Assembly: GCA_044229265.1 (NCBI GenBank)
Contig: JBGATK010000004.1
Coordinates: 252 to 64,251 of the forward strand
Reading direction: 5' to 3'
Length of the DNA: 64,000 nucleotides
Source of the DNA: Minisyncoccia bacterium
GTDB taxonomy: Bacteria; Patescibacteriota; Minisyncoccia; Phycocordibacterales; UBA9973
Below, piece by piece: positions 3,450-61,043 of the stretch. Under the pieces are notes generated by a model that was given only the letters and a program-made list of their open reading frames with translations, was not told the origin of the DNA and did not search any database. The position numbers were made by a program, and so were the translations under genes. The first letter of the stretch is position 1; every line of letters starts with the position of its first letter.

Positions 3450-4109
3450 ATGGAAATTAAAATTCTTTACGAAGATGAAAATATACTCGCTATAGATAAG
3501 CCTTCATCTATTTTAGTGCATCCTGATGAAAGGAGCAGTGAAGAAACTATTCTAGATATTTTTTTAAAAAAGTATCCTGAAATTGAAATAGTACATAGAC
3601 TTGATTATGAAACTTCAGGAGTAATGTTGCTCGCTAAAAATAAAGTTGCTCATGAATTTTTAAAAAAACAATTTCAAGATAGGGAAATTAAAAAAACTTA
3701 TCTCACATTGGTATATGGTGATTTAAAAAAAGATTTCGGTGTGATAGATCAGCCTATCGGGCGCTCGCCATCAGACTTTCGGCGTAGGCTCGCTGGTCGT
3801 GGCGCAAGGGGAGAGATGAGAGAATCGATAACAGAATACAAAGTTTTAAAAAGGCTCGAGATAGAAGGTCAGAAATATACTTTAGTGGAAGTAATGCCAA
3901 AAACTGGCCGTACGCACCAGATACGGGTGCATATGAAATATCTGAGTTATCCGGTAGTATGCGACAAACTTTACGCTCCTAAAAATTTGTGCCCAAGCAT
4001 TTTGGGGCGCCTCATGCTTCATGCGAAATCCATTGAATTTAAAGCTTTAAATAATGAAATAATTAAAGTAGAATCACCTTTGCCACCCGTGTTTTCTAAA
4101 ATGCTATAA
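3450..4109 (+). CDS. RluA-family 23S rRNA/tRNA pseudouridine synthase
   Basis: HRLDYETSGVMLLAKN is the canonical RluA catalytic motif (HRLDxxTSG). The start is 2 nt after tRNA-Arg. Confidence 0.8.
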   Translation: MEIKILYEDENILAIDKPSSILVHPDERSSEETILDIFLKKYPEIEIVHRLDYETSGVMLLAKNKVAHEFLKKQFQDREIKKTYLTLVYGDLKKDFGVIDQPIGRSPSDFRRRLAGRGARGEMRESITEYKVLKRLEIEGQKYTLVEVMPKTGRTHQIRVHMKYLSYPVVCDKLYAPKNLCPSILGRLMLHAKSIEFKALNNEIIKVESPLPPVFSKML

Positions 4110-45334: not shown

Positions 45335-45360
45335 AAAAACTCTCATATGAGAGTTTTTTA
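45335..45360. terminator. Bidirectional intrinsic terminator between rpsR (+) and efp (-)
   Basis: AAAAAA-CTCTCATATGAGAG-TTTTTT: palindrome flanked by A-run and T-run. Confidence 0.65.
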
Positions 45361-45371
45361 TTTTGTATAGT

Positions 45372-45953
45372 TTAAGCTCTTTCTACGTATTCTCCAGTTT
45401 CAGTATTTATTATTACATTATCACCTTCGTTTATGAACATTGGAGTGGTGATAGAAGTACCATTTTCGAGTGTTATGTATTTATTTCCACCCTTACTAGT
45501 ATCGCCACGCACAGCAGGTGGGGCTTCTTTTACCTTAAAAGTCATTTTAATAGGGAGTTTTAAACCTATAGTTTTTTCTTCGCCATCATTGTCCCATATC
45601 AGTGCTGTAGCATTTTCATTTTCTTTTAGGAATTTTTTTGTAGCATCTTCTAGGATATTTGCATCAATCTTGAATCTATCACTTTTATTATTTGGATCGC
45701 AAAACCAATATTCCTGTCCTTTTTGGTATAGGAACATGACTTCTCGTTTTTCTATTTCTGCTTCGTCTGCCATATCGGATACATGAAATGTAGCCGCTAT
45801 GGTCTTACCAGATATAAGGCTTTTTAGCTTTACTTGGTTTTGAGGTTTGCGTTGTTGGGTGCGAGCGACATGGCTCTCCACTACTTCGCAAGGTTCATCA
45901 TCATGAATAATTATTTTCTTCTCTCGAATTTCACTATATTCTAGTTTTGCCAT
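45372..45953 (-). CDS. efp: Elongation factor P
   Basis: 193 aa with the three-domain EF-P pattern. Confidence 0.8.
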   Translation of the reverse strand: MAKLEYSEIREKKIIIHDDEPCEVVESHVARTQQRKPQNQVKLKSLISGKTIAATFHVSDMADEAEIEKREVMFLYQKGQEYWFCDPNNKSDRFKIDANILEDATKKFLKENENATALIWDNDGEEKTIGLKLPIKMTFKVKEAPPAVRGDTSKGGNKYITLENGTSITTPMFINEGDNVIINTETGEYVERA

Positions 45954-45978
45954 GTTTTTATCTTAGCAGAAAATTTTT

Positions 45979-47034
45979 TTATTTCAACTCTTCTTTAAAT
46001 TTCTTCTTTATCTCTTTTAGAGCCTCAGAACTTATTTTTGGATTTTCTTTGAGGAATGTGCGAGTATTGTCGTATCCTACACCCAATTTGACCTTATCCT
46101 TAGCAACGCCTTCTGGTATATAAAAGTATGAATTACCAGATTTTTCGATAACTTTAAATTTTTCACCGAGAGCCATGATTTCACCCTCTTTGCTAATACC
46201 TTCACCGTAGATAATGTCGAACTCTGTTTGGGTAAACGGGGCAGCGACTTTGTTTTTCACTATTTTCACACGTGTTCGAGATCCCACATTTTCTTCACCT
46301 TTTTTAATTTGCGCAATTTTACGTATATCGAGACGCACAGAAGTATAGAATTTGAGGGCTTTACCTCCTGGTGTAGTTTCAGGATTACCAAACATTACTC
46401 CTATTTGCATACGGATTTGGTTAATAAATATAACTACTGTCTTGCTTCGAGATACGATAGCTGTGAGTTTGCGGAGTGCTTGCGACATGAGGCGAGCTTG
46501 TTTACCCACATGGTACGCACCCATATCTCCCTCTATTTCATCTTTTGGAGTAAGTGCTGCTACAGAGTCGATAACAATGACGTCTATCTTTCCAGTTCGG
46601 ACTAAACTCTCGACGATTTCGAGGGCTTGTTCACCATTGTCAGGTTGAGAAATGAGTAAATTATTTATATCTACGCCGAGTTTTTTTGTATATTCAGGAT
46701 CCATTGCGTGTTCAGCATCTATGTATGCACATACTCCGCCTTTCTTTTGAGCTTCAGCTACAATGTGTAGGGAAAGGGTGGTCTTACCAGAGGATTCCGG
46801 TCCAAAGATTTCTATAATGCGTCCACGAGGTATACCTCCGACGCCGAGAGCCATGTCGAGGCCGATGGAGCCAGTGGGTATGACATTGATGTCTACTTTT
46901 GGCGAATCACCGAATTTCATGATGGAACCTTCACCAAATTTTGTCTGTATAGACTTCAGCGTATTCTCGAGTATCGTGGTGTCTTCTTTTTCTCCTATTA
47001 TCTTGTCTGCCTTTTTCTCTTTTTTCTTTTGCAT
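45979..47034 (-). CDS. recA: Recombinase RecA
   Basis: Walker [11 protein letters not shown]1/L2 loop regions, [30 protein letters not shown]. Confidence 0.9.
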
Positions 47035-47035
47035 A

Positions 47036-47386
47036 TTAGTTTTTGTAAATTATCTTGTAATCTTTTTTGTCGCTATTGCCAAATTTATCTTTAGCTTCGA
47101 GCGTAATTATATTATAACCTAGAGATAGGGCAATTGTCTCTTTGAAATTACCATTTTCATCTATCGCAATTTCATTGCTATTTAAGGCTAAATTTATAGC
47201 ATTTTTAGCATTTCCAGATACATTTATTATTTCTTCATTATAACTTTCACCATCTTTGATATTTACGTCTTTTATCTGTATTCCAAATAGGATGTTTTTT
47301 GAAACAAACAATACATCAACAAAAATAAAAACGAAAAAACCGATCACTATCCATATGCTCATTATTTTTTTCTGATCTTTTCGCAT
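47036..47386 (-). CDS. Hypothetical small membrane-anchored protein between ftsK and recA
   Basis: 116 aa, N-terminal TM helix; apparently in an operon with ftsK-recA-efp. Confidence 0.35.
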
Positions 47387-47402
47387 TTTTGTATTTTTTT
47401 AT

Positions 47403-49604
47403 TTATTCAATCTGATTATTTCCTGTCTCATCTCGTTCTATTTTTTCTAGAATTGTTCTTTCTCGTGAGCCATCTTTTGGTCCAATCACTCCTCTCTCCT
47501 CGAGCATGTCTATCAAGCGTGCTGCCCGGGAGTACCCTAGGCGTAGTTTTCTTTGCAAATATGAAGTACTTGCTTTACCATCAGCAATTACTATTTGTCT
47601 TGCTTCTTCGTATAGTTCATCTTCGTCTCCACTGTCTAGGTTTGATTCAAAAATACTTTTATCTGCTGATATGCTACCACTATCTAGGTTGATTTCATCT
47701 TGAATTTCATCTTTAAAAGAATCATACAAGTATTTTACTACTGATTTCACTTCACTTTCAGAAATAAAAGCACTTTGTAAGCGTTCCGGGGAAGATTCTC
47801 CTGAAGAATATAGCATATCTCCAGCACCGAGTAGCTTTTCTGCGCCACCAGCGTCTAGTATAGTGCGAGAGTCTATTTGACTCGAAACCTTTAGAGCTAC
47901 GCGTGCCGGAATGTTTGCTTTAATAAGACCAGTTATGACATTTACTTCAGGACGTTGGGTAGATAGTATAAGGTGTATGCCTACTGCACGAGACATTTGA
48001 GCGAGGCGCACAATGCCAGCTTCTAGTTCTCGAGGATATGAAGTCATAATATCTGCAAGTTCATCGATAATAATTACGATAAATGGCATAGGATCAGGAC
48101 CGACTTCTTCTTCTGTGCCATCAGCTCTGGTTTTAGTATTCTTAACATTTTTTGCAACAATATTTGTGTGATAGCTTTGTATATCACGAACACTTTCGCT
48201 CTCGAGTATGTCATAACGTCGTTCCATTTCTTTGGCTGCCCATTTTAAAGCAAGGATACATTTTTTAGCATCTGTAATTACAGGAGTCAGGAGGTGAGGA
48301 ATATTTTTATATAAAGTTAGTTCCACTCTTTTTGGGTCGACAAAAATGAATTTTAATTCTTCTGGTCCGTTGCGATAAAGGAGGGAAGTAATGATAGTAT
48401 GTATGGTCACTGATTTACCAGAACCAGTAGTACCGGCAACCAGAGCATGAGGCATTTTAGCCAAATTACCAAATACAGCTTTCCCTGAGATAGATCGTCC
48501 GAGGGCTACAGTTAGTGGTTTATCAGAAGCGTTAAATTTATTGTCTGCGAGAAGTGTGCCAAGGCCGACAGTTGATTTACTTTTATTTGGAATTTCTATA
48601 CCCACTAGTGATTTGCCAGGTATAGGAGCTTCTATACGTATAGGGTGAGCAGCTAAGGCTAGAGCTAGGTCATTTTGAAGAGTGATTATACGTGATAATT
48701 TTACACCTTCAGCTGGTTTTAAGGCGTATCTAGTTACTGTAGGTCCTACTGTTATTTCATCCATCTCTACTTCTATGCCAAAGTTTGATAGCGTGCGTTT
48801 AATAATAGCGCCGTTTTCTTTTATATCGCCAGTATTTGGTTTGCCTTTGTCTACTTCGAGTAGTGATAGAGGTGGGGGGACATAAGCTGAAGCAGATACG
48901 CTCTTTCTTTTTTTAATAGGCATTTCATCTTCTTCCTCCTTCCCGACGCTTTGTTTTGCAAAGGTCGGGACCCCGCCGACCCCTTTGGGCGTCGGGGCTT
49001 CCTCGTCTTCAATATCTTTTTCCTCTTCTTCAGTTTCTTCATAATCTTCATCTTCATCAATTTCGACTTTTTGGCGCGAGAATAAATTTTTGATTCTTTG
49101 CCAAAAAGTTAGTAGATCAGGTCTTGCATCAAATAGTACTAATATAGAGATAATTAAAAATGCTCCGAGAAACATTATGCTCGCATAAACATCAAAAAGT
49201 GAAATCAGTGGTTTTGAAAAAATTCCTCCGAGAAGCCCACCAGATTCTGTGCCGAGTGCTATGCTTATGAGTCCGAGTCCAGAAGCTAAAAATACAGCTC
49301 CGCTTATTGCACGCAAGCCACCAATATTTGGCCGTTCAGATTTTATAAATGAAATACCTAAAAGTAAAAATAAAACAGGTAATAGAGTATAACCCACACC
49401 TAGTAAATAATAAAATATTTTATAGAAAAATTTTCCAGCCGTTCCGCCTGCATCAAAAGATGCCATAAATAAAAACAATGCTAAAACAAAAAAAACTATC
49501 GCCCATATTGTATGCATGGTTTCAGTTTTTAGTTTTGGTATTGTTTCTTTTTTTTCTTTCACAAATTTTTTATTTTTCTTTTCTATCTTTTTTTCTTTTG
49601 CCAT
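47403..49604 (-). CDS. ftsK: DNA translocase FtsK/SpoIIIE
   Basis: N-terminal 4-TM anchor, acidic linker, Walker A HALVAGTTGSGKSV, Walker B IIIDELAD, winged-helix gamma domain (LGYSRAARLIDMLEERGVIG). Confidence 0.9.
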   Translation of the reverse strand: MAKEKKIEKKNKKFVKEKKETIPKLKTETMHTIWAIVFFVLALFLFMASFDAGGTAGKFFYKIFYYLLGVGYTLLPVLFLLLGISFIKSERPNIGGLRAISGAVFLASGLGLISIALGTESGGLLGGIFSKPLISLFDVYASIMFLGAFLIISILVLFDARPDLLTFWQRIKNLFSRQKVEIDEDEDYEETEEEEKDIEDEEAPTPKGVGGVPTFAKQSVGKEEEDEMPIKKRKSVSASAYVPPPLSLLEVDKGKPNTGDIKENGAIIKRTLSNFGIEVEMDEITVGPTVTRYALKPAEGVKLSRIITLQNDLALALAAHPIRIEAPIPGKSLVGIEIPNKSKSTVGLGTLLADNKFNASDKPLTVALGRSISGKAVFGNLAKMPHALVAGTTGSGKSVTIHTIITSLLYRNGPEELKFIFVDPKRVELTLYKNIPHLLTPVITDAKKCILALKWAAKEMERRYDILESESVRDIQSYHTNIVAKNVKNTKTRADGTEEEVGPDPMPFIVIIIDELADIMTSYPRELEAGIVRLAQMSRAVGIHLILSTQRPEVNVITGLIKANIPARVALKVSSQIDSRTILDAGGAEKLLGAGDMLYSSGESSPERLQSAFISESEVKSVVKYLYDSFKDEIQDEINLDSGSISADKSIFESNLDSGDEDELYEEARQIVIADGKASTSYLQRKLRLGYSRAARLIDMLEERGVIGPKDGSRERTILEKIERDETGNNQIE

Positions 49605-49691
49605 CTATATATTTTAACATATTTTTAAAATAAAATTATATTGTTTATTTTTATTACGATACCCACCCCATATTGGACTTGCAATAAGTAG

Positions 49692-50510
49692 ATGGGCAAG
49701 TATAATGGACGTATGCAAAATGATGGAAAGAATCAAAAAGACACTTTCAAAGACACCCATCTCTCTCTAAAAGACAGCCTTTTTTCTATCTCGTATTCTA
49801 AGACCAATAAGCTCTTAACTGCTTTATATATGGTTACAGAGATAATTGATAAAAATGAACCAATCAGACACAAGCTCAGGTCTCTTGCTACAGATCTCTT
49901 GTCGGACACTTTAGCTACACAGTTCAACTCTAGGACAAATGTCCTAATGGACATAAATAAAAAGATAACTGAAATTATGTCTTTTATGGATATTGCCTCT
50001 ACTATTGGAATGATTTCGGAGATGAATAATCGCATACTAAAAAATGAATTCATGGTGCTAAAAAAATCTTTAAATTTAGAAGAAAATTCTGTTTGGCTGG
50101 AAGAGTTTTTAGCTGAAAATACTTCTATTGGACACGATACTATGTCCGATAGAAGTCCAATAAGAATAGGTGTCCAAAAAGGAGATGGCCTATTAACTGC
50201 ACTCAGAAAAATAGATAAAAATCATATGTCCGATACGAAAAAAGATCATCAAATCAAGCCTGAAAATAAAAAGGAATCTTTTGATAAACTAAAACTTGAA
50301 CGTCGCTACGAAATAATGTCCGTTATTCAGAATTATCCAAACGGTGCTACCATCTCAGACATTCGTTCCAAAGGACAAGGAATTCTCAAAGAAATCGGTG
50401 AAAAAACTTTGCAAAGAGAATTAGTAGCTATGACCATGGATGGAGTTTTGAAACGAGAAGGAGAGAAACGTTGGTCCAAGTATAGCATCATTCCTACTCC
50501 TAAAAGATAG
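49692..50510 (+). CDS. Hypothetical protein with C-terminal winged-helix-like domain (possible transcription regulator)
   Basis: 272 aa; helical N-terminal region. C-terminal RRYEIMSVIQNYPNGATISDIR...GEKTLQRELVAMTMDGVL resembles wHTH DNA-binding domains. Confidence 0.35.
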   Translation: MGKYNGRMQNDGKNQKDTFKDTHLSLKDSLFSISYSKTNKLLTALYMVTEIIDKNEPIRHKLRSLATDLLSDTLATQFNSRTNVLMDINKKITEIMSFMDIASTIGMISEMNNRILKNEFMVLKKSLNLEENSVWLEEFLAENTSIGHDTMSDRSPIRIGVQKGDGLLTALRKIDKNHMSDTKKDHQIKPENKKESFDKLKLERRYEIMSVIQNYPNGATISDIRSKGQGILKEIGEKTLQRELVAMTMDGVLKREGEKRWSKYSIIPTPKR

Positions 50511-51004
50511 TTGCTTTTTGCCTATATTTATGATAAGATACTCTTGTGGTTATTGGGCTTTTTGCACCAGTTTTCCACATAATATATTGCTGTAAATCGT
50601 AGCTTTATATTATAATGTTTATATGTATATTTGGTGCACATTTATTTGTGCGTATATGCATATTGTAAATTCACTTTTGTTTTTAAGTCGAGTCGAAAAT
50701 CACTTAAAAATTTAGTGGACCCAAAGTAAAATATTTCGCAAGAAAAATCTTACCTAGGGAAATGTACGAACATTGAAAACTAAATATTTTCTTGCTCTCC
50801 GCAAATTTGCGAATAGTAAGAATCGTGTTTATGTTTTCAGTTATGTTTCTTGTCTCTGTTCATTTTCTTTTCTCGCAAACATTATTACTTTTTATTAGTT
50901 AATTTTAGTGAGAGAGAATTTGATGGGAAATACGCTTTAGTTTCCTTCTGGTAAAACAGAAGGAGTCGAAACTATATAAAGGCGTAAAATTAAAAAATAA
51001 AATT

Positions 51005-54000
51005 ATGAGTAATTTATTAAAATCAAAATTTCTTTTAGGAACATTGGTTTTCGCAACTGTATTTGCTTTTGCAGCAAATGCTTCTGCGGCTACTTTCAAT
51101 GTTAACCTTAAAAAAGGAATGAGAAATGCTGATGTTACAGCACTTCAAAATGTTCTCGGAGTAAGTCCAGCTACTGGATACTTCGGACCAATAACATTCG
51201 CTGCAGTTAAGGCTTATCAAACAGCTCACGGAATCAGTCCTGTTTCAGGATTCGTAGGTCCACTTACAAGAGCTTCTTTGAATGCTTCAACTCCTACTAC
51301 CCCTACAACACCTACAACTCCAACTACACCTACACAAACAGGTCCAGTTACAGCTGCTGTGTCTACAGACACTCCTGCTGCTGGTACTTTGGTTGCTGGT
51401 CAAGCTACAGCTGATCTTGCGCACTTTACCTTCAGTGGTACAGGCACAGTTACATCTGTAGTATTGAAACGCATAGGCGTATCAGCAGACACTACTCCTT
51501 CAAACGTTTATTTGTTTGATGGCGTAAATCGTCTTACTGATGCAGCTTCTGTATCAAACACAGGTCTAGTAACATTTAATATGCCTTCAGGTATCTTTTC
51601 AGTAGCTGGTTCAAAAACTATCTCTGTAAAGTCTGATATCGCTGGCTCAACTTCAGGACAAACAGTTGGTATGATGCTTACATCATTCACTACTGCTTCT
51701 GGTGTTGTGAATACAACTTTGTCTGGAAATATCCACGCTATCGCTACAGCTACACTAGCTACAGTTTCAGCTGGAACAGTTACTCCTTCAGGAGCAACTC
51801 TTAATCCAGGTGCTGGTGTTACTCTATTCCAATCAACACTTACAGTTTCAAACCGTGATGTTTGGATGAAGAGAATTTCATTTAGAAACTTAGGTTCAGC
51901 ACAAGCTTCAGCTTTTGCTAACTTCAAGCTCTACATGAATGGCGTACAAGTCGCTACAGCTACTGGTTTAGATGCTAATGGTTATGTTACTTTTGACATG
52001 ACTTCAGCTCCTATTACAGTTGCTACTGGTGCTCGTGTAATGCGTGTTGATGCTGATATAATCTCTGGTGCTTCAAGAACAGTACAACTTTCACTTCGCA
52101 ATGCTGCTGATGTCGACTTTGTTGACTCATCATTCGGTGTGAACGTAGCTGCTTCTTCTACACCTTGGACAGCTTCTTCAGCTAACACTATCTCTGGTAC
52201 TTCTGGCGGTAGTATTACAATCGAGAAAGATACATCTTCACCTTCTGGAAACGTTGCTGCTGGTGTAAATGATAAAATTCTCGGTGTATTCAAAGTTACA
52301 GCTTTCGGTGAACCAATGAAAATCGAAACATTGCGTGCTGCAGTTACAGCATCTGATGGTTCTACAGCTTCTCTTCGCAACGGTCGCATAATGATCGGTG
52401 GCGTGCAATATGGTTCTACATCAACATTGCAAGAAGATAGTTCTTCACCTGCTTACACTTCATACACATTAAACTTCACAGTTTACCCAGGCACACCAGT
52501 TCTTATGGAACTACGTGCAGATATCTACGATAACGATGGTACTGACAACGTATCAAACGGTGATACATTCATCGGTGTTATCGCAGCTGGTTCTTCAAAC
52601 GTGCAAAAAGTTGATTCTCTAGGCTCAGTTACTGCTCCTTCTTCAGCTGTATCAGCTAACACTATTACAGTCGCTTCAGCAGCAGCTACTTTGACAAAAG
52701 ATGCTACTTATGCAAACCAAACAGTTGTTCTTCCATCTACTGCTTTCAAAATCGGTGATTGGAATTTGGCTGGTTCTTCAGTTGAAGATATTCTTTTGAC
52801 TACATTGTCATTTGATGTTGATGAAGTTTCTGATACAGAATTTGATGAGGGCGACCTTACAAATATGTATGTAGTAGTGAAGAGTGGTTCTACAATCGTG
52901 GCTCAACCTTCACCTCTAGCTACAGTTTCTGCTACAGACAATAACTTCTCTATCAATTACACATTGGTTAAGAATGGTTCTCTTTCAATCGAACTTTACG
53001 CTAACTTGTCTGACGATGGTTCTGATACATCAATTGATGCTACAGACTCATTCAAGACAGACTTGACTGTAACTGGTACTTCTTTGATCGGTGGTACTTC
53101 CGTCACTGCTACTTCAGCAGATACAGATGGTCAAACAATAGCAGCAGGTACAGCTTCAATAACAGCTACAACAGATGCTTCAGCGATGCTTCAGCTCCAG
53201 TTGCTTCAATTGTCTATGACAATCAAACAGTAACAGCTTCAGTATTCAAATTTGCAGCACTTACAGCAGGCTACAATGTGACTGATCTTACATTCACATT
53301 AGCAAACGCTACAGTTGCTCAAACAGTTGAGCTTTACGATGGTGCTACTCTAGTAGCTAGCCTTCCAGGCGCATCTACAGTAACATTCTCAGGTCTTTCA
53401 TGGAATGTTCCTGCAAATACCAACAAATACTTAACTGTAAAACTGGTTCTAGGTGCAGTAGGTATTGGTGCTGGTACTTCAGGTTCATCACAACTTCTTA
53501 CTTTGACAGCATTCTCAGCTACAAATACTTCTACTGGTGTTAACGCAACAGGAACAGAAAGTGATCCAGCTGGAAATGCGATGTATGCTTATGCATCTAC
53601 ACCAACAATCACAAACGTAGCTCTTCCTACAACAACTTTGAACACAGGCACTGTAACAGCTGCTAAATTCTCAGTTGCTTCAAACGGAGGTTCTATCGAA
53701 TGGAAGAAGTTGATCTTTACTATCACAAAGAGTATTTCTGGTACTGATACTCTAGCTTCAGGTACAGTTTGGGATGCAGATACTAACACACAAGTTGCTG
53801 GTACATTTACATTCACAGGCTCTGTAGAAGCAGATAACGATACTGCTGGAGGTGCTACATTCGTAGCTACTAACCCACAAGCTATCAACGGTACAAAGAC
53901 TTACGTTGTAAAGATGACAGTTGCAGGTACACTTGCATCCGGTGATAACATGAGTGTTTACATCGATCAATTACCTACAAGCTATGCAGCTTCAAACGAT

Positions 54001-54141
54001 TACACTACAGTAGCAGCTACAACAGCTACTCTAGTATGGTCTGATCTATCAGCTTCTGGTCACAGTACATCAACAACTGACTGGGTTAATTCTTACTTAG
54101 TTAAGAATCTTCCAACAGATACTCAAACTCTTACTTACTAA
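51005..54141 (+). pseudogene. Large S-layer-like surface protein gene (about 1041 aa once the frameshift is corrected) with N-terminal peptidoglycan-binding domain; reading frame split by an 11-bp tandem duplication
   Basis: Signal peptide ending ANASA; PG_binding_1-like domain; (TP)n linker; long Thr/Ser/Ala/Val/Gly-rich, Cys-free body. ORFs 51005..53233 and 53278..54141 (GTG start) are joined by frame +1, which is open across the junction. Deleting one copy of GATGCTTCAGC restores a single ORF. Confidence 0.7.
53174..53195 (+). repeat. Perfect 11-bp tandem duplication (GATGCTTCAGC x2) causing the frameshift
   Basis: gatgcttcagc at 53174-53184 and again at 53185-53195. Confidence 0.85.
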
Positions 54142-54182
54142 TAAGTAGAAGATTGAAGTTGGTCTAAACTAGACTGATAAAC

Positions 54183-54216
54183 AAAAAACCACCCGAAAGG
54201 GTGGTTTTTTGTTTTG
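54183..54216 (+). terminator. Strong intrinsic terminator after the surface protein gene
   Basis: AAAAAACCACCC-GAAA-GGGTGGTTTTTTGTTTTGTTTTTT. Confidence 0.75.
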
Positions 54217-54911: not shown

Positions 54912-54916
54912 CCTTT

Positions 54917-54974
54917 CAGGTGTCCGACACCCGATAACCTTACAAACAAAAGCCCGTCGGGTGTTCGACACCTG
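54917..54974. repeat. REP-like 58-bp imperfect palindrome, copy A
   Basis: CAGGTGTCCGACACCCG-ATAACCTTACAAACAAAAGCC-CGTCGGGTGTTCGACACCTG; the arms are reverse complements apart from 2 central mismatches. Followed by GGGCTTTTTGTTT, which pairs with AAACAAAAGCCC inside the element. Confidence 0.8.
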
Positions 54975-55001: not shown

Positions 55002-55694
55002 ATGAGAAAAGATCCATTAATAACAGGTATGTATTATCATATATACAATCGTGGTGTGGATAAACGAGATATTTTTTCTAATTTAAATGATTTAAAGCGT
55101 TTTGTTTTAAGTGCTAAAAAATTTAATAATATTAAGCCGATAGGTAGCTTGAAAGATAAATTAATAGAAGAAAAAAACTTGTCAGGTGTCGAACACCCGA
55201 CGGACGAAATAAAAGAACTTGTTTCTATCGTTTGTTTTTCATTTAATCCAAACCATTTCCATTTTATTGTAAAACAAGAAGTTGATGGAGGTGTATCAGA
55301 ATTTTTTAAAAGATTATTGGGTGGTTATACTAATTATTTTAATATTACAAATCGTAGAAATGGCTCATTGTTTCAAGGTAAATTTAAATCAAATCTTATA
55401 GATGATGATGCGTATTTTTTAAAGATTTACCCATATGCTCATATGAATTATCTGGTTCATGATATTCCAAAAGAAAAACAGCATTTGGTTTTTACTAGTG
55501 AAAAAGAATATAATTCTGGTATTTTTAATTTAGTTTCAAAAAAAGAGGCTGAAGAATTGATAGCCGGATACGGTTCTTTAGAAAATTTTAAAAAAGAATG
55601 TTTAGAAGTTATAGATATGATTAGAGAAGAAAGGGGGCTTGAGCCTCTCGACGGAGAAGACAATTTACCATTTCAGGTGTCCGACACCCGATAA
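55002..55694 (+). CDS. IS200/IS605-like HuH-Y1 transposase, REP-associated (RAYT-like)
   Basis: YHIYNRGVDKRDIF N-terminus, HuH motif NHFHFIV, GSLFQGKF block and C-terminal YPYAHMNY with candidate catalytic Tyr (COG1943/Y1_Tnp pattern). Flanked by REP-like palindromes; the last 7 codons lie in copy B. Confidence 0.65.
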   Translation: MRKDPLITGMYYHIYNRGVDKRDIFSNLNDLKRFVLSAKKFNNIKPIGSLKDKLIEEKNLSGVEHPTDEIKELVSIVCFSFNPNHFHFIVKQEVDGGVSEFFKRLLGGYTNYFNITNRRNGSLFQGKFKSNLIDDDAYFLKIYPYAHMNYLVHDIPKEKQHLVFTSEKEYNSGIFNLVSKKEAEELIAGYGSLENFKKECLEVIDMIREERGLEPLDGEDNLPFQVSDTR

Positions 55695-55731
55695 CCTTAT
55701 AAACAAAAGCCCGTCGGGTGTTCGACACCTG
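55674..55731. repeat. REP-like 58-bp imperfect palindrome, copy B (1 nt different from copy A)
   Basis: Identical to 54917..54974 except TACAAAC versus TATAAAC. Ends 1 nt before the comF stop codon (55732). Confidence 0.8.
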
Positions 55732-59267: not shown

Positions 59268-61043
59268 ATGAGCATTTTAGAAGAATTAGTAAAAAAAAAT
59301 TTAATCAAAAGTGTAGATATAAACGAAATCAAAAATCTCGCGAATGAAAAATTCTCGGGTGATGTTGATGGCGCATTACTTGAATGGGGTTTAAAAGAGA
59401 AAGATCTACTTGAAACAAAAGGCGAATTTTACAATATGCCTATTCGCACCATAAACCCAAAGGAAATATCTATGACGATTTTGAATTATATACCTGAAGA
59501 TTCAGCTCGATTTTATCGTTTTGCTCCTATATCTCTTAAAGATGGTGTACTTGAAGTCGGTGTGACTGATCCAGGCAATGTCGACAGTATGAATGCTTTG
59601 CAATTTATCTCGGCCAAGCTCGGAATGCCTTTTAAGGTGTATTTAATTTCACCACTTGATTATGTGAAAATAATGGATAGTTATAAAGGTATTACTCTCG
59701 ATATGAGTGATGCACTTGATGATTTTACTAATCAAGAAGTTGTAAATGTAAATAAAGAATCTGGGTCTTTGGATTCAAATTTATCTGACAATGAGTCAAA
59801 TCTCACTCGTGAATTGCAAGATGTAAATAAAGGCACAAAGAAATTAGTGGAAGATGCTCCAATTATAAAAATAGTAGCCGTAATATTAAAAAATGCAATT
59901 GAAGGAGGTGCTTCTGATGTTCACATCGAGCATATGGGTGAGAGAGTAAAAGTCAGATATCGAGTTGACGGGACACTACATACTTCTATTATGCTTCCAG
60001 CAAATGTTCATAGTGGAATAATTGCCCGTATTAAAATACTTTCACGCTTACATTTAGACGAAAAACGCAAACCGCAAGACGGGTCTTTTTCAGCAGTGAT
60101 AGATAATCGTAAGGTGGATTTTCGTGTTTCTACTATGCCGGGTTATTACGGAGAAAAAGCAGCAATTCGTATCTTGGATTCTACTAAAGGTTTGAAACCT
60201 ATGAGTGAGCTTGGTTTGTCAGAAATTAATTTAGCTTTATTAAAAGATGCTATTACTAAGCCTTTTGGTCTTATTCTTATTACTGGTCCTACTGGTTCTG
60301 GTAAATCCACTACACTGTATTCTATAATGAATGAGCTTGATAAAGAAAAAAGTAATGTGGTTACCCTAGAAGACCCTGTAGAATATCATATGCCTGATGT
60401 AAATCAATCACAGGTTTTACCGGAAATAGGTTATACTTTTGCTTCAGGACTACGCTCAATTCTAAGACAAGACCCAGACATAATAGTGGTCGGAGAAATT
60501 CGAGATAAAGAAACTGCTCAACTTGCTATTCAAGCTGCGCTTACGGGGCACTTGGTTTTATCTACACTGCACACAAATAATTCTATTGGAGTAATTCCTC
60601 GTCTTGTAGATATGGGTGTGGATCCTTATCTTATTGCTCCAACTTTAATACTTTCTATAGCTCAAAGGCTCGCTAGAATTACTTGTGAATCTTCACGTAA
60701 AGAAGTTCCTATGGAAGAAAGCGTACGCAAGCAATTTGCTGATCAATTTGCTGATTTGCCAGAAGAATACAGGTCAAAAATTAAAATTCCTGAAAAAATG
60801 ATAACTACAGTTCCAAGTCCAGAATGTCCTTCTGGCACAAGGGGTCGTATTGCTATTTTTGAAATGTTTAAAATAGATAAAGACATGCAGGATATTATAC
60901 TTAAAAATCCAACATCGGGAGTTATTTTTGAGAATGTTCGAAAAAAGGGAATGCTGACCATGAAAGAAGATGCTATGCTAAAAGCCGTAACTGGCATAAT
61001 TCCTTATGAAGAAGTGTATAATTTTAACAATGATAATGAATAA
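59268..61043 (+). CDS. pilB: Type IV pilus assembly ATPase PilB (GspE family)
   Basis: T2SE N-terminal domain, Walker A ITGPTGSGKSTT, Asp box, Walker B IIVVGEIRD, His box LVLSTLHTN. Confidence 0.85.
   Translation: MSILEELVKKNLIKSVDINEIKNLANEKFSGDVDGALLEWGLKEKDLLETKGEFYNMPIRTINPKEISMTILNYIPEDSARFYRFAPISLKDGVLEVGVTDPGNVDSMNALQFISAKLGMPFKVYLISPLDYVKIMDSYKGITLDMSDALDDFTNQEVVNVNKESGSLDSNLSDNESNLTRELQDVNKGTKKLVEDAPIIKIVAVILKNAIEGGASDVHIEHMGERVKVRYRVDGTLHTSIMLPANVHSGIIARIKILSRLHLDEKRKPQDGSFSAVIDNRKVDFRVSTMPGYYGEKAAIRILDSTKGLKPMSELGLSEINLALLKDAITKPFGLILITGPTGSGKSTTLYSIMNELDKEKSNVVTLEDPVEYHMPDVNQSQVLPEIGYTFASGLRSILRQDPDIIVVGEIRDKETAQLAIQAALTGHLVLSTLHTNNSIGVIPRLVDMGVDPYLIAPTLILSIAQRLARITCESSRKEVPMEESVRKQFADQFADLPEEYRSKIKIPEKMITTVPSPECPSGTRGRIAIFEMFKIDKDMQDIILKNPTSGVIFENVRKKGMLTMKEDAMLKAVTGIIPYEEVYNFNNDNE

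Follow-up and report, generated by a model that had tools for sequence, protein, structure and literature searches.

Two adjacent open reading frames (ORFs) on the forward strand of a 64,000-nucleotide stretch of Minisyncoccia bacterium DNA (GenBank assembly GCA_044229265.1, contig JBGATK010000004.1; the whole stretch is here called the window) raise the question of whether they encode two proteins or are the parts of one, and, if of one, how the gene came to be split. The two are ORF A (51005-53233) and ORF B (53278-54141). An earlier note, made from the sequence alone, had claimed that an 11-mer standing twice in perfect tandem at 53174-53195, close to the end of ORF A, divides a single large S-layer-like gene, and had offered two explanations: a real, possibly reversible truncation, or an artefact of assembly or consensus. 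Comparison with homologues confirms that the two ORFs are one frameshifted gene and not two proteins. We further give a probability of roughly 0.6 to the view that the split is a real, unprogrammed mutation of a surface-protein gene in an ultra-small organism of the Paceibacteria/CPR.

The duplication, the split frame and the ancestral state

The two copies of the 11-mer GATGCTTCAGC, at 53174-53184 and 53185-53195, are 100% identical, as the earlier note had it. The repeat measures exactly 2 x 11 nt, and its flanks break the periodicity on both sides (53173 A versus 53184 C; 53196 T versus 53185 G). The junction of the two-copy allele reads GCTTCAGCGATGCTTCAGC. The window has no other perfect two-copy repeat with a period of 11, block-wise shuffles yield a mean of 0.03, and no further exact copy of GATGCTTCAGC was found elsewhere in the 64 kb. 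In the frame of ORF A the first copy encodes D724, A725, S726 and the first two bases of A727, while the second copy, the inserted unit, spells D-A-S-A again in the downstream frame. The 11-nt insertion shifts the frame by +2, with a stop 15 codons later. Accounted for in this way, the 742 amino acids (aa) of ORF A comprise 727 native residues ending in ...ITATTDASA, followed by an implausible 15-residue out-of-frame tail, MLQLQLLQLSMTIKQ (53186-53230; the ORF A-specific tail peptide is MLQLQLLQLSMTIK), and a stop codon at 53231-53233. From 53038 onwards the -1 frame is free of stops until 54141, and its reading across the junction is DASAPVASIVYDNQTVTASVFKFAALTAGYNVTDLTF... or, in a longer version across the repeat, DASAPVASIVYDNQTV... 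From 53197 to 54141 this frame carries the downstream continuation of the ancestral gene, residues P728 to Y1041 and the stop. Excising one 11-mer in silico fuses ORF A with ORF B (P0124, 287 aa from a GTG start) into a single ORF of 3126 nt and 1041 aa whose sole stop is terminal; the coordinates and arithmetic given previously were all correct.

A search with this merged 1041-aa protein returned 868 matches, the best 120 of which supplied the details that follow. Lengths of 1045-1150 aa and alignment over 95-100% of the query are the rule among these 120, with identities ranging from 52 to 77%; the shorter entries among them sit on short contigs. Where the source gives a name, it is 'peptidoglycan-binding protein' of Candidatus Paceibacterota, Nomurabacteria or Patescibacteria. 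Aligned with the 40 best homologues, the merged protein shows no gap at the junction, where it reads ...ITATTDASAPVASIVYDNQ against a homologue consensus of ...ITAT(x)DAS(x)PVA(x)IVYDNQTV, and one homologue, P0001, equals the merged sequence exactly over ITATTDASAPVA. The same holds at the level of DNA. The nearest syntenic orthologue (L017), in which the order is FtsK, a 265-aa gene and the surface gene, has ACAGCTACAACAGATGCTTCAGCTCCAGTTGCT at the junction, which is the window sequence minus one 11-mer, and two further orthologous loci (L013 and L014) have GATGCTTCAGC once, followed by TCC(A/T)GTT. Because the DNA of all three carries the 11-mer once, the single-copy, single-ORF state is, on this comparison, the ancestral one, and the window carries a derived, exact duplication. 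The segment is single-copy in 10/10 aligned orthologous DNAs, with no repeat tract maintained in the relatives. The claim that a duplication splits one large gene is thus borne out by the gap-free protein alignment and by the single-copy orthologous DNA; the comparison with related genomes that had been proposed as a check finds them with one copy and an intact single frame. The main value of this result lies in annotation, in that 51005-53233 and 53278-54141 are to be annotated as one frameshifted gene, belonging to a widespread, well-conserved and uncharacterised family of Paceibacteria envelope proteins.

No frameshift was seen in any of 10 species-representative genome loci, and each of the nine with sequence on both sides of the junction keeps a single frame across it. 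The same is true of 80 loci on metagenome contigs, none of which is frameshifted; 55 of these cover essentially the whole protein in one frame, and the remaining 25 either run off the end of a contig or belong to distant variants whose C-termini differ. Across these 90 loci there is no independent duplication within the gene in another strain. Downstream of the duplication, no further stop or indel occurs over 945 nt. Similarity to the homologues is 80-87% for the downstream part versus 76-88% for the upstream part, and a three-way comparison that also takes in P0001 and an outgroup consensus assigns changes to the window lineage alone at 13 of 292 sites in the C-terminal part versus 20 of 567 in the N-terminal part. 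With 0/90 relatives frameshifted and no extra decay downstream, the event is, as judged from these comparisons, lineage-specific and very recent, or not real.

Short C-terminal matches brought to light two other split orthologues, neither of which has a short duplication. In L013 (P0125) the split coincides with a 100-N scaffold gap at 3823-3922, on both sides of which the same ~60 nt are duplicated, a clear assembly artefact. In L014 (P0126; GCA_026395875.1, JAPLXW010000050.1; 3978-3980) about 100 residues, corresponding to domain 4 of the protein described below, have been lost out of frame, leaving ORFs of 675 aa and 347 aa. Three further candidates were rejected as disrupted orthologues: P0123 is a paralogue of different architecture, P0129 adjoins glycosyltransferase genes and is a truncated paralogue or a chimera, and P0121 is cut by a contig end. 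The short C-terminal matches that were checked show no pattern of recurrent disruption of the surface gene.

The encoded surface protein and its predicted truncated form

The N-terminus of the protein, MSNLLKSKFLLGTLVFATVFAFAANASA, is signal-peptide-like by inspection (aa 1-28). It is followed by a PG_binding_1 module (PF01471) at aa 52-92, the sole Pfam match, which scores 33.9 bits against a cut-off of 23, and by a Pro/Thr linker at aa 96-109 (51288-51334), detected with TRF. Full-length homology to a Paceibacteria family of 1045-1150 aa, together with PF01471 above its gathering score, places the protein in that family. An AlphaFold2 model of the merged protein, built on 69 sequences, has a mean pLDDT of 86.7 and is all beta after the helical anchor. 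Six beta-sandwich domains can be delimited in it (aa ~113-255, 256-400, 401-560, 561-727, 728-870 and 871-988), each of which opens with a similar strand pair. The last two, domain 5 (~53197-53625) and domain 6 (~53626-53979), lie beyond the duplication, as does a conserved C-terminal tail (53980-54138) in which W1008, D1010, H1016, D1022 and W1023 are invariant in the 69 sequences.

Sequence searches of NCBIfam and the PDB returned matches to the PG-binding module and none to the body of the protein. With Foldseek, the PDB yielded generic Ig-like arrays only (TEP1, alpha-2-macroglobulin, a mastigoneme, integrin legs and pilins) at TM-scores below 0.2, and the top 50 matches included no S-layer protein. 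The description 'S-layer-like' in the earlier note is therefore not demonstrated. The signal-peptide-like N-terminus and the PG_binding_1 anchor provide the combination of secretion signal and wall-anchoring module expected of an S-layer protein, though the type of anchor differs from SLH and CWB2, and neither sequence nor fold matches a known S-layer protein. S-layer identity is an unproven hypothesis; the family can reasonably be put forward as a candidate for the role of main surface-layer or host-contact protein in Paceibacteria. In overall plan it resembles the wall-anchored multi-Ig-domain proteins and S-layer proteins of Gram-positive bacteria, with which it shares a signal peptide and a wall-binding module at the N-terminus, then a Pro/Thr linker and a long string of beta-sandwiches; the genes have in common an extended, conserved leader and a strong terminator. 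It differs from them in that the anchor is PG_binding_1 (PF01471) and not SLH, CWB2 or LPXTG, in that the protein body matches no Pfam or NCBIfam family, and in that lattice formation is here hypothetical, the conserved ~490-bp leader and the terminator being no more than indirect hints of a self-assembling, most abundant envelope protein.

Where does the frameshift fall in this architecture? The AlphaFold2 model has residue 727 in the linker that joins domains 4 and 5, after the strand 718-723 and before the strand 731-734. The product of the two-copy allele is accordingly predicted from the model to keep the signal peptide, the anchor, the linker and four complete domains and to gain the 15-residue tail, and would be expected to lose domains 5 and 6 together with the conserved C-terminal tail. 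One protein (L096) was considered as a homologue that naturally has four domains and stops at this boundary, and was rejected, being a 1381-aa protein with a divergent C-terminus.

Two assemblies of the same or a near-identical strain provide a view of variation in and around the gene. The first (L001, a Logan assembly of SRR28480387) corresponds to 45339-52206 of the window and ends inside the surface gene; the second (L002, GCA_964617005.1) starts at 54199, inside a terminator hairpin downstream. All eight mismatches between L001 and the window fall within 36 bp of the surface gene, 51703-51738, the rest of the 6.8 kb being identical. They amount to V->I, T->A, T->S and A->N, with two synonymous changes besides; the site is a beta-hairpin of domain 1, and at each mismatch one of the two alleles has an A. 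A diversity-generating retroelement was considered as their source and rejected for the window, which holds no template-repeat or donor copy. The patch looks like one of recombination or micro-diversity in a surface loop. It shows that the surface gene is polymorphic among close strains, and because of this a truncation allele segregating in the population is plausible.

Origin of the two-copy state

If the mutation is real, the simplest course of events would be a recent, lineage-specific and spontaneous tandem duplication of 11 bp, arising by replication slippage or template switching within a gene whose product is a conserved cell-envelope protein of Paceibacteria. The cell, or whichever subpopulation is represented in the assembly, would then make a secreted, wall-anchored protein of 727 native residues ending at the boundary of domains 4 and 5, and the allele would be a truncation or loss-of-function allele, an incipient pseudogene. 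We infer that the two copies are present in the reads and that the truncated product is made and exported; the allele may reflect relaxed selection, or selection driven by phage or host, on a polymorphic surface gene. Two points argue for a real allele. Over 14.3 kb the window differs from L001 and L002 by 38 mismatches and 0 indels (99.88% identity for L001, 99.6% for L002), and for this reason its assembly is not indel-prone; the 22-nt structure is, moreover, shorter than the k-mers usual in assembly, and a de Bruijn assembler should need reads that contain it. That the indel is an exact 11-bp duplication, and not a homopolymer error, argues somewhat for a biological origin. Several observations weigh on the other side. 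No independent assembly spans the junction, L001 ending at 52206 and L002 starting at 54199, and look-ups by neighbouring genes found these two assemblies only. The exact 742-aa product was found nowhere else in the collection, and the one record of the 287-aa product P0124 is on an NCBI contig that is presumably the window's own source; exact-product look-ups of the two ORFs led to no further DNA of the strain, and a scan of metagenome contigs for both flanks separated by a gap of 0-22 nt gave 0 matches. The duplication also lacks flanking microhomology, and in relatives the surface gene has been troublesome to assemble, as the N-gap with duplicated flanks in L013 illustrates. The contrary explanation is that the organism has one copy and an intact gene of 1041 aa, the extra 11 nt having been introduced by assembly, scaffolding, polishing or consensus calling as contig ends or variants of the strain were merged or polished. 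In its favour, the surface gene is a breakpoint in the assembly of the same or near-identical strain (L001) and has the N-gap in L013, the downstream part is as pristine as an intact gene would be, the lack of microhomology is what an untrimmed overlap would leave, and the two-copy state is known from one assembly. Against such an artefact, common metagenome assemblers do not leave overlaps of 11 nt, and scaffold joins are normally marked with Ns, as in L013; indels are absent over the 14.3 kb shared with two independent assemblies; and among the 71 ORFs of at least 120 aa a visual check, and this alone, revealed no other obviously split gene. We regard an artefact as a possible though rather unlikely source of the second copy. 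The real truncation and the artefact are exactly the two alternatives that the earlier note had set out.

The frameshift could also serve a purpose, either as a switch or as a device for expressing both parts. As a switch, a two-copy OFF state and a one-copy ON state would interconvert by slipped-strand mispairing under selection (phase variation), allowing a population to dispense with the distal portion of its main envelope protein, for instance as a means of evading phage or of changing its attachment to the host. In favour of this, a perfect tandem duplication lends itself to precise excision, which in silico gives back exactly the ORF of the orthologues; the gene affected encodes a surface protein and shows signs of micro-diversity; because the break lies between two domains, the OFF product could, according to the model, still fold; and there is a precedent in the capsule genes of pneumococci, considered below. 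The relatives speak against it, having no repeat tract or duplication at any site and no frameshift at any of the 90 loci, the splits in L013 and L014 trace to other causes (an N-gap in the first, the out-of-frame deletion of a domain in the second), and the copy number in the window is only two. The suggestion of an on/off switch is for these reasons unsupported, and we consider a reversible switch improbable. Doubtful to a similar degree is the fuller picture of an ultra-small, probably episymbiotic Paceibacterium that switches off two distal domains and the tail of the wall-anchored protein that dominates its envelope while keeping a foldable four-domain stump, as a phage defence acting at the level of the population or as a change of host attachment. 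Deliberate expression of both parts would require either a programmed -1 frameshift, giving the full-length protein with an extra DASA, or independent translation of ORF B. A shift of -1, which is what the locus would need, is one that programmed frameshifting makes use of, and the two frames overlap over 53038-53233. Within this overlap, however, there is no slippery heptamer of the form X XXY YYZ and no homopolymer of four or more, and the RNA downstream has no extra stability, with a minimum free energy of -19.2 kcal/mol versus a shuffle mean of -19.6 (z = 0.15); a programmed -1 frameshift was rejected on these grounds. As for ORF B, the GTG at 53278 is the sole start codon in the downstream frame between 53038 and 53420. 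No Shine-Dalgarno-like motif precedes it, although the other starts inspected in the window likewise have no clear motif, and translation from it would begin in the middle of domain 5, without a signal peptide. The frameshift is, in addition, absent from all orthologues. ORF B is a leftover and not a separate gene, and, for want of a slippery site, a stable RNA structure and a good start for ORF B, recoding or deliberate two-part expression is very unlikely.

Among known systems, classical contingency loci, such as those in surface genes of Haemophilus and Neisseria, are long, evolutionarily maintained tracts of 1-7-nt units. Such simple-sequence-repeat loci share with the window a change in repeat copy number that shifts the frame of a surface-protein gene, and differ in that the 11-mer is single-copy in all relatives and reaches only two copies in the window. 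Because the relatives have no repeat tract, this is not a classical contingency locus. A closer parallel is offered by the spontaneous, reversible sequence duplications in the capsule genes of Streptococcus pneumoniae serotypes 3, 8 and 37 (cap3A, cap8E and tts; Waite et al., 2001, 2003, cited in PMC4243769). Going by the account in PMC4243769, the cap3A type shares with our locus a perfect tandem duplication of unique sequence within the ORF of a surface determinant, which causes frameshift and truncation and arises with no pre-existing tract; exact loss of one copy restores the wild-type ORF there, and does so here in silico only. In the same account, many independent duplications and their reversion have been seen experimentally in pneumococci, whereas we have one instance in one assembly and none among the 90 related loci. 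With ordinary frameshifted pseudogenes and with the assembly indels of metagenome-assembled genomes the locus shares a single indel that splits a conserved gene into adjacent ORFs, the sequence being otherwise intact, and there is no difference of substance beyond the nature of the indel itself.

It is most economical to file the allele as an ordinary frameshift allele, or incipient pseudogene, produced by a short tandem duplication. The locus adds one more case of a familiar type of mutation, here in a Paceibacteria envelope family that is widespread though uncharacterised. Should both alleles coexist, the natural truncation variant would be useful for probing the role of the distal domains, and the locus would offer one of the few examples of switching by duplication beyond cultured pathogens; should they not, it would be an ordinary frameshift. 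A true switch would belong to a type that has so far been documented experimentally mainly in pneumococcal capsule genes.

Flanking regions and neighbouring genes

Upstream of the surface gene lies a non-coding region of ~490 bp (50511-51004, forward strand) that is conserved in blocks across orthologous loci (L017, L013, L014 and L009). It contains a promoter-like TTGCTG-18-TATAAT at ~50588-50617 and, just before the ATG of the surface gene, a conserved block, GTCGAAACTATATAAAGGCGTAAA. From its sequence the region is probably a promoter and long leader, and may be the long conserved 5' leader of a highly expressed gene. An Rfam scan of the window found three tRNAs only, none of them near the surface gene, and no match within 50511-51004. 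On the other side, 38 nt after the stop codon, a hairpin resembling an intrinsic terminator occupies 54179-54214 (forward strand), with a perfect 16-bp stem, a GAAA loop and a T-rich tail, and is predicted to close the transcription unit of the surface gene. The start of L002 at 54199, within this palindrome, is typical of a de Bruijn contig break. The TPR gene that lies 3' of the surface gene has its mechanical GTG start at 54201, inside the hairpin, but probably begins in reality with ATG 54240 (MKNMNKEQK...).

In several relatives a small PG_binding_1 gene (257-259 aa) lies directly 3' of the surface gene (L013, 5228-6004; L014, 5168-5941; L019, 2147-2926), and a downstream PG_binding-like match is also present in L003 and L010. 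The window has no second small PG_binding_1 gene, and there the TPR gene follows the surface gene directly. Further along, a 230-aa ORF at 55002-55694 gives a weak match to the IS200-like Y1 transposase family (PF01797, E = 0.003). It stands between 61-bp direct repeats that are 98% identical (54914-54974 and 55671-55731), each of which holds the palindromes GGTGTCCGACACC and GGTGTTCGACACC, pointing to a RAYT/REP-like arrangement. The gene is missing from the syntenic L013, where a ComF-like gene directly follows the TPR gene.

Outside AT-rich sequence, the only other perfect two-copy tandem repeat of at least 11 nt in the window is at 60732-60755, where CAATTTGCTGAT occurs twice. This repeat is in frame (QFADQFAD) within the gene for a 591-aa T2SSE/PilB-like ATPase (59268-61043). 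It is also present, with no gaps, in the independent assembly L002, which indicates that it is fixed in the species.

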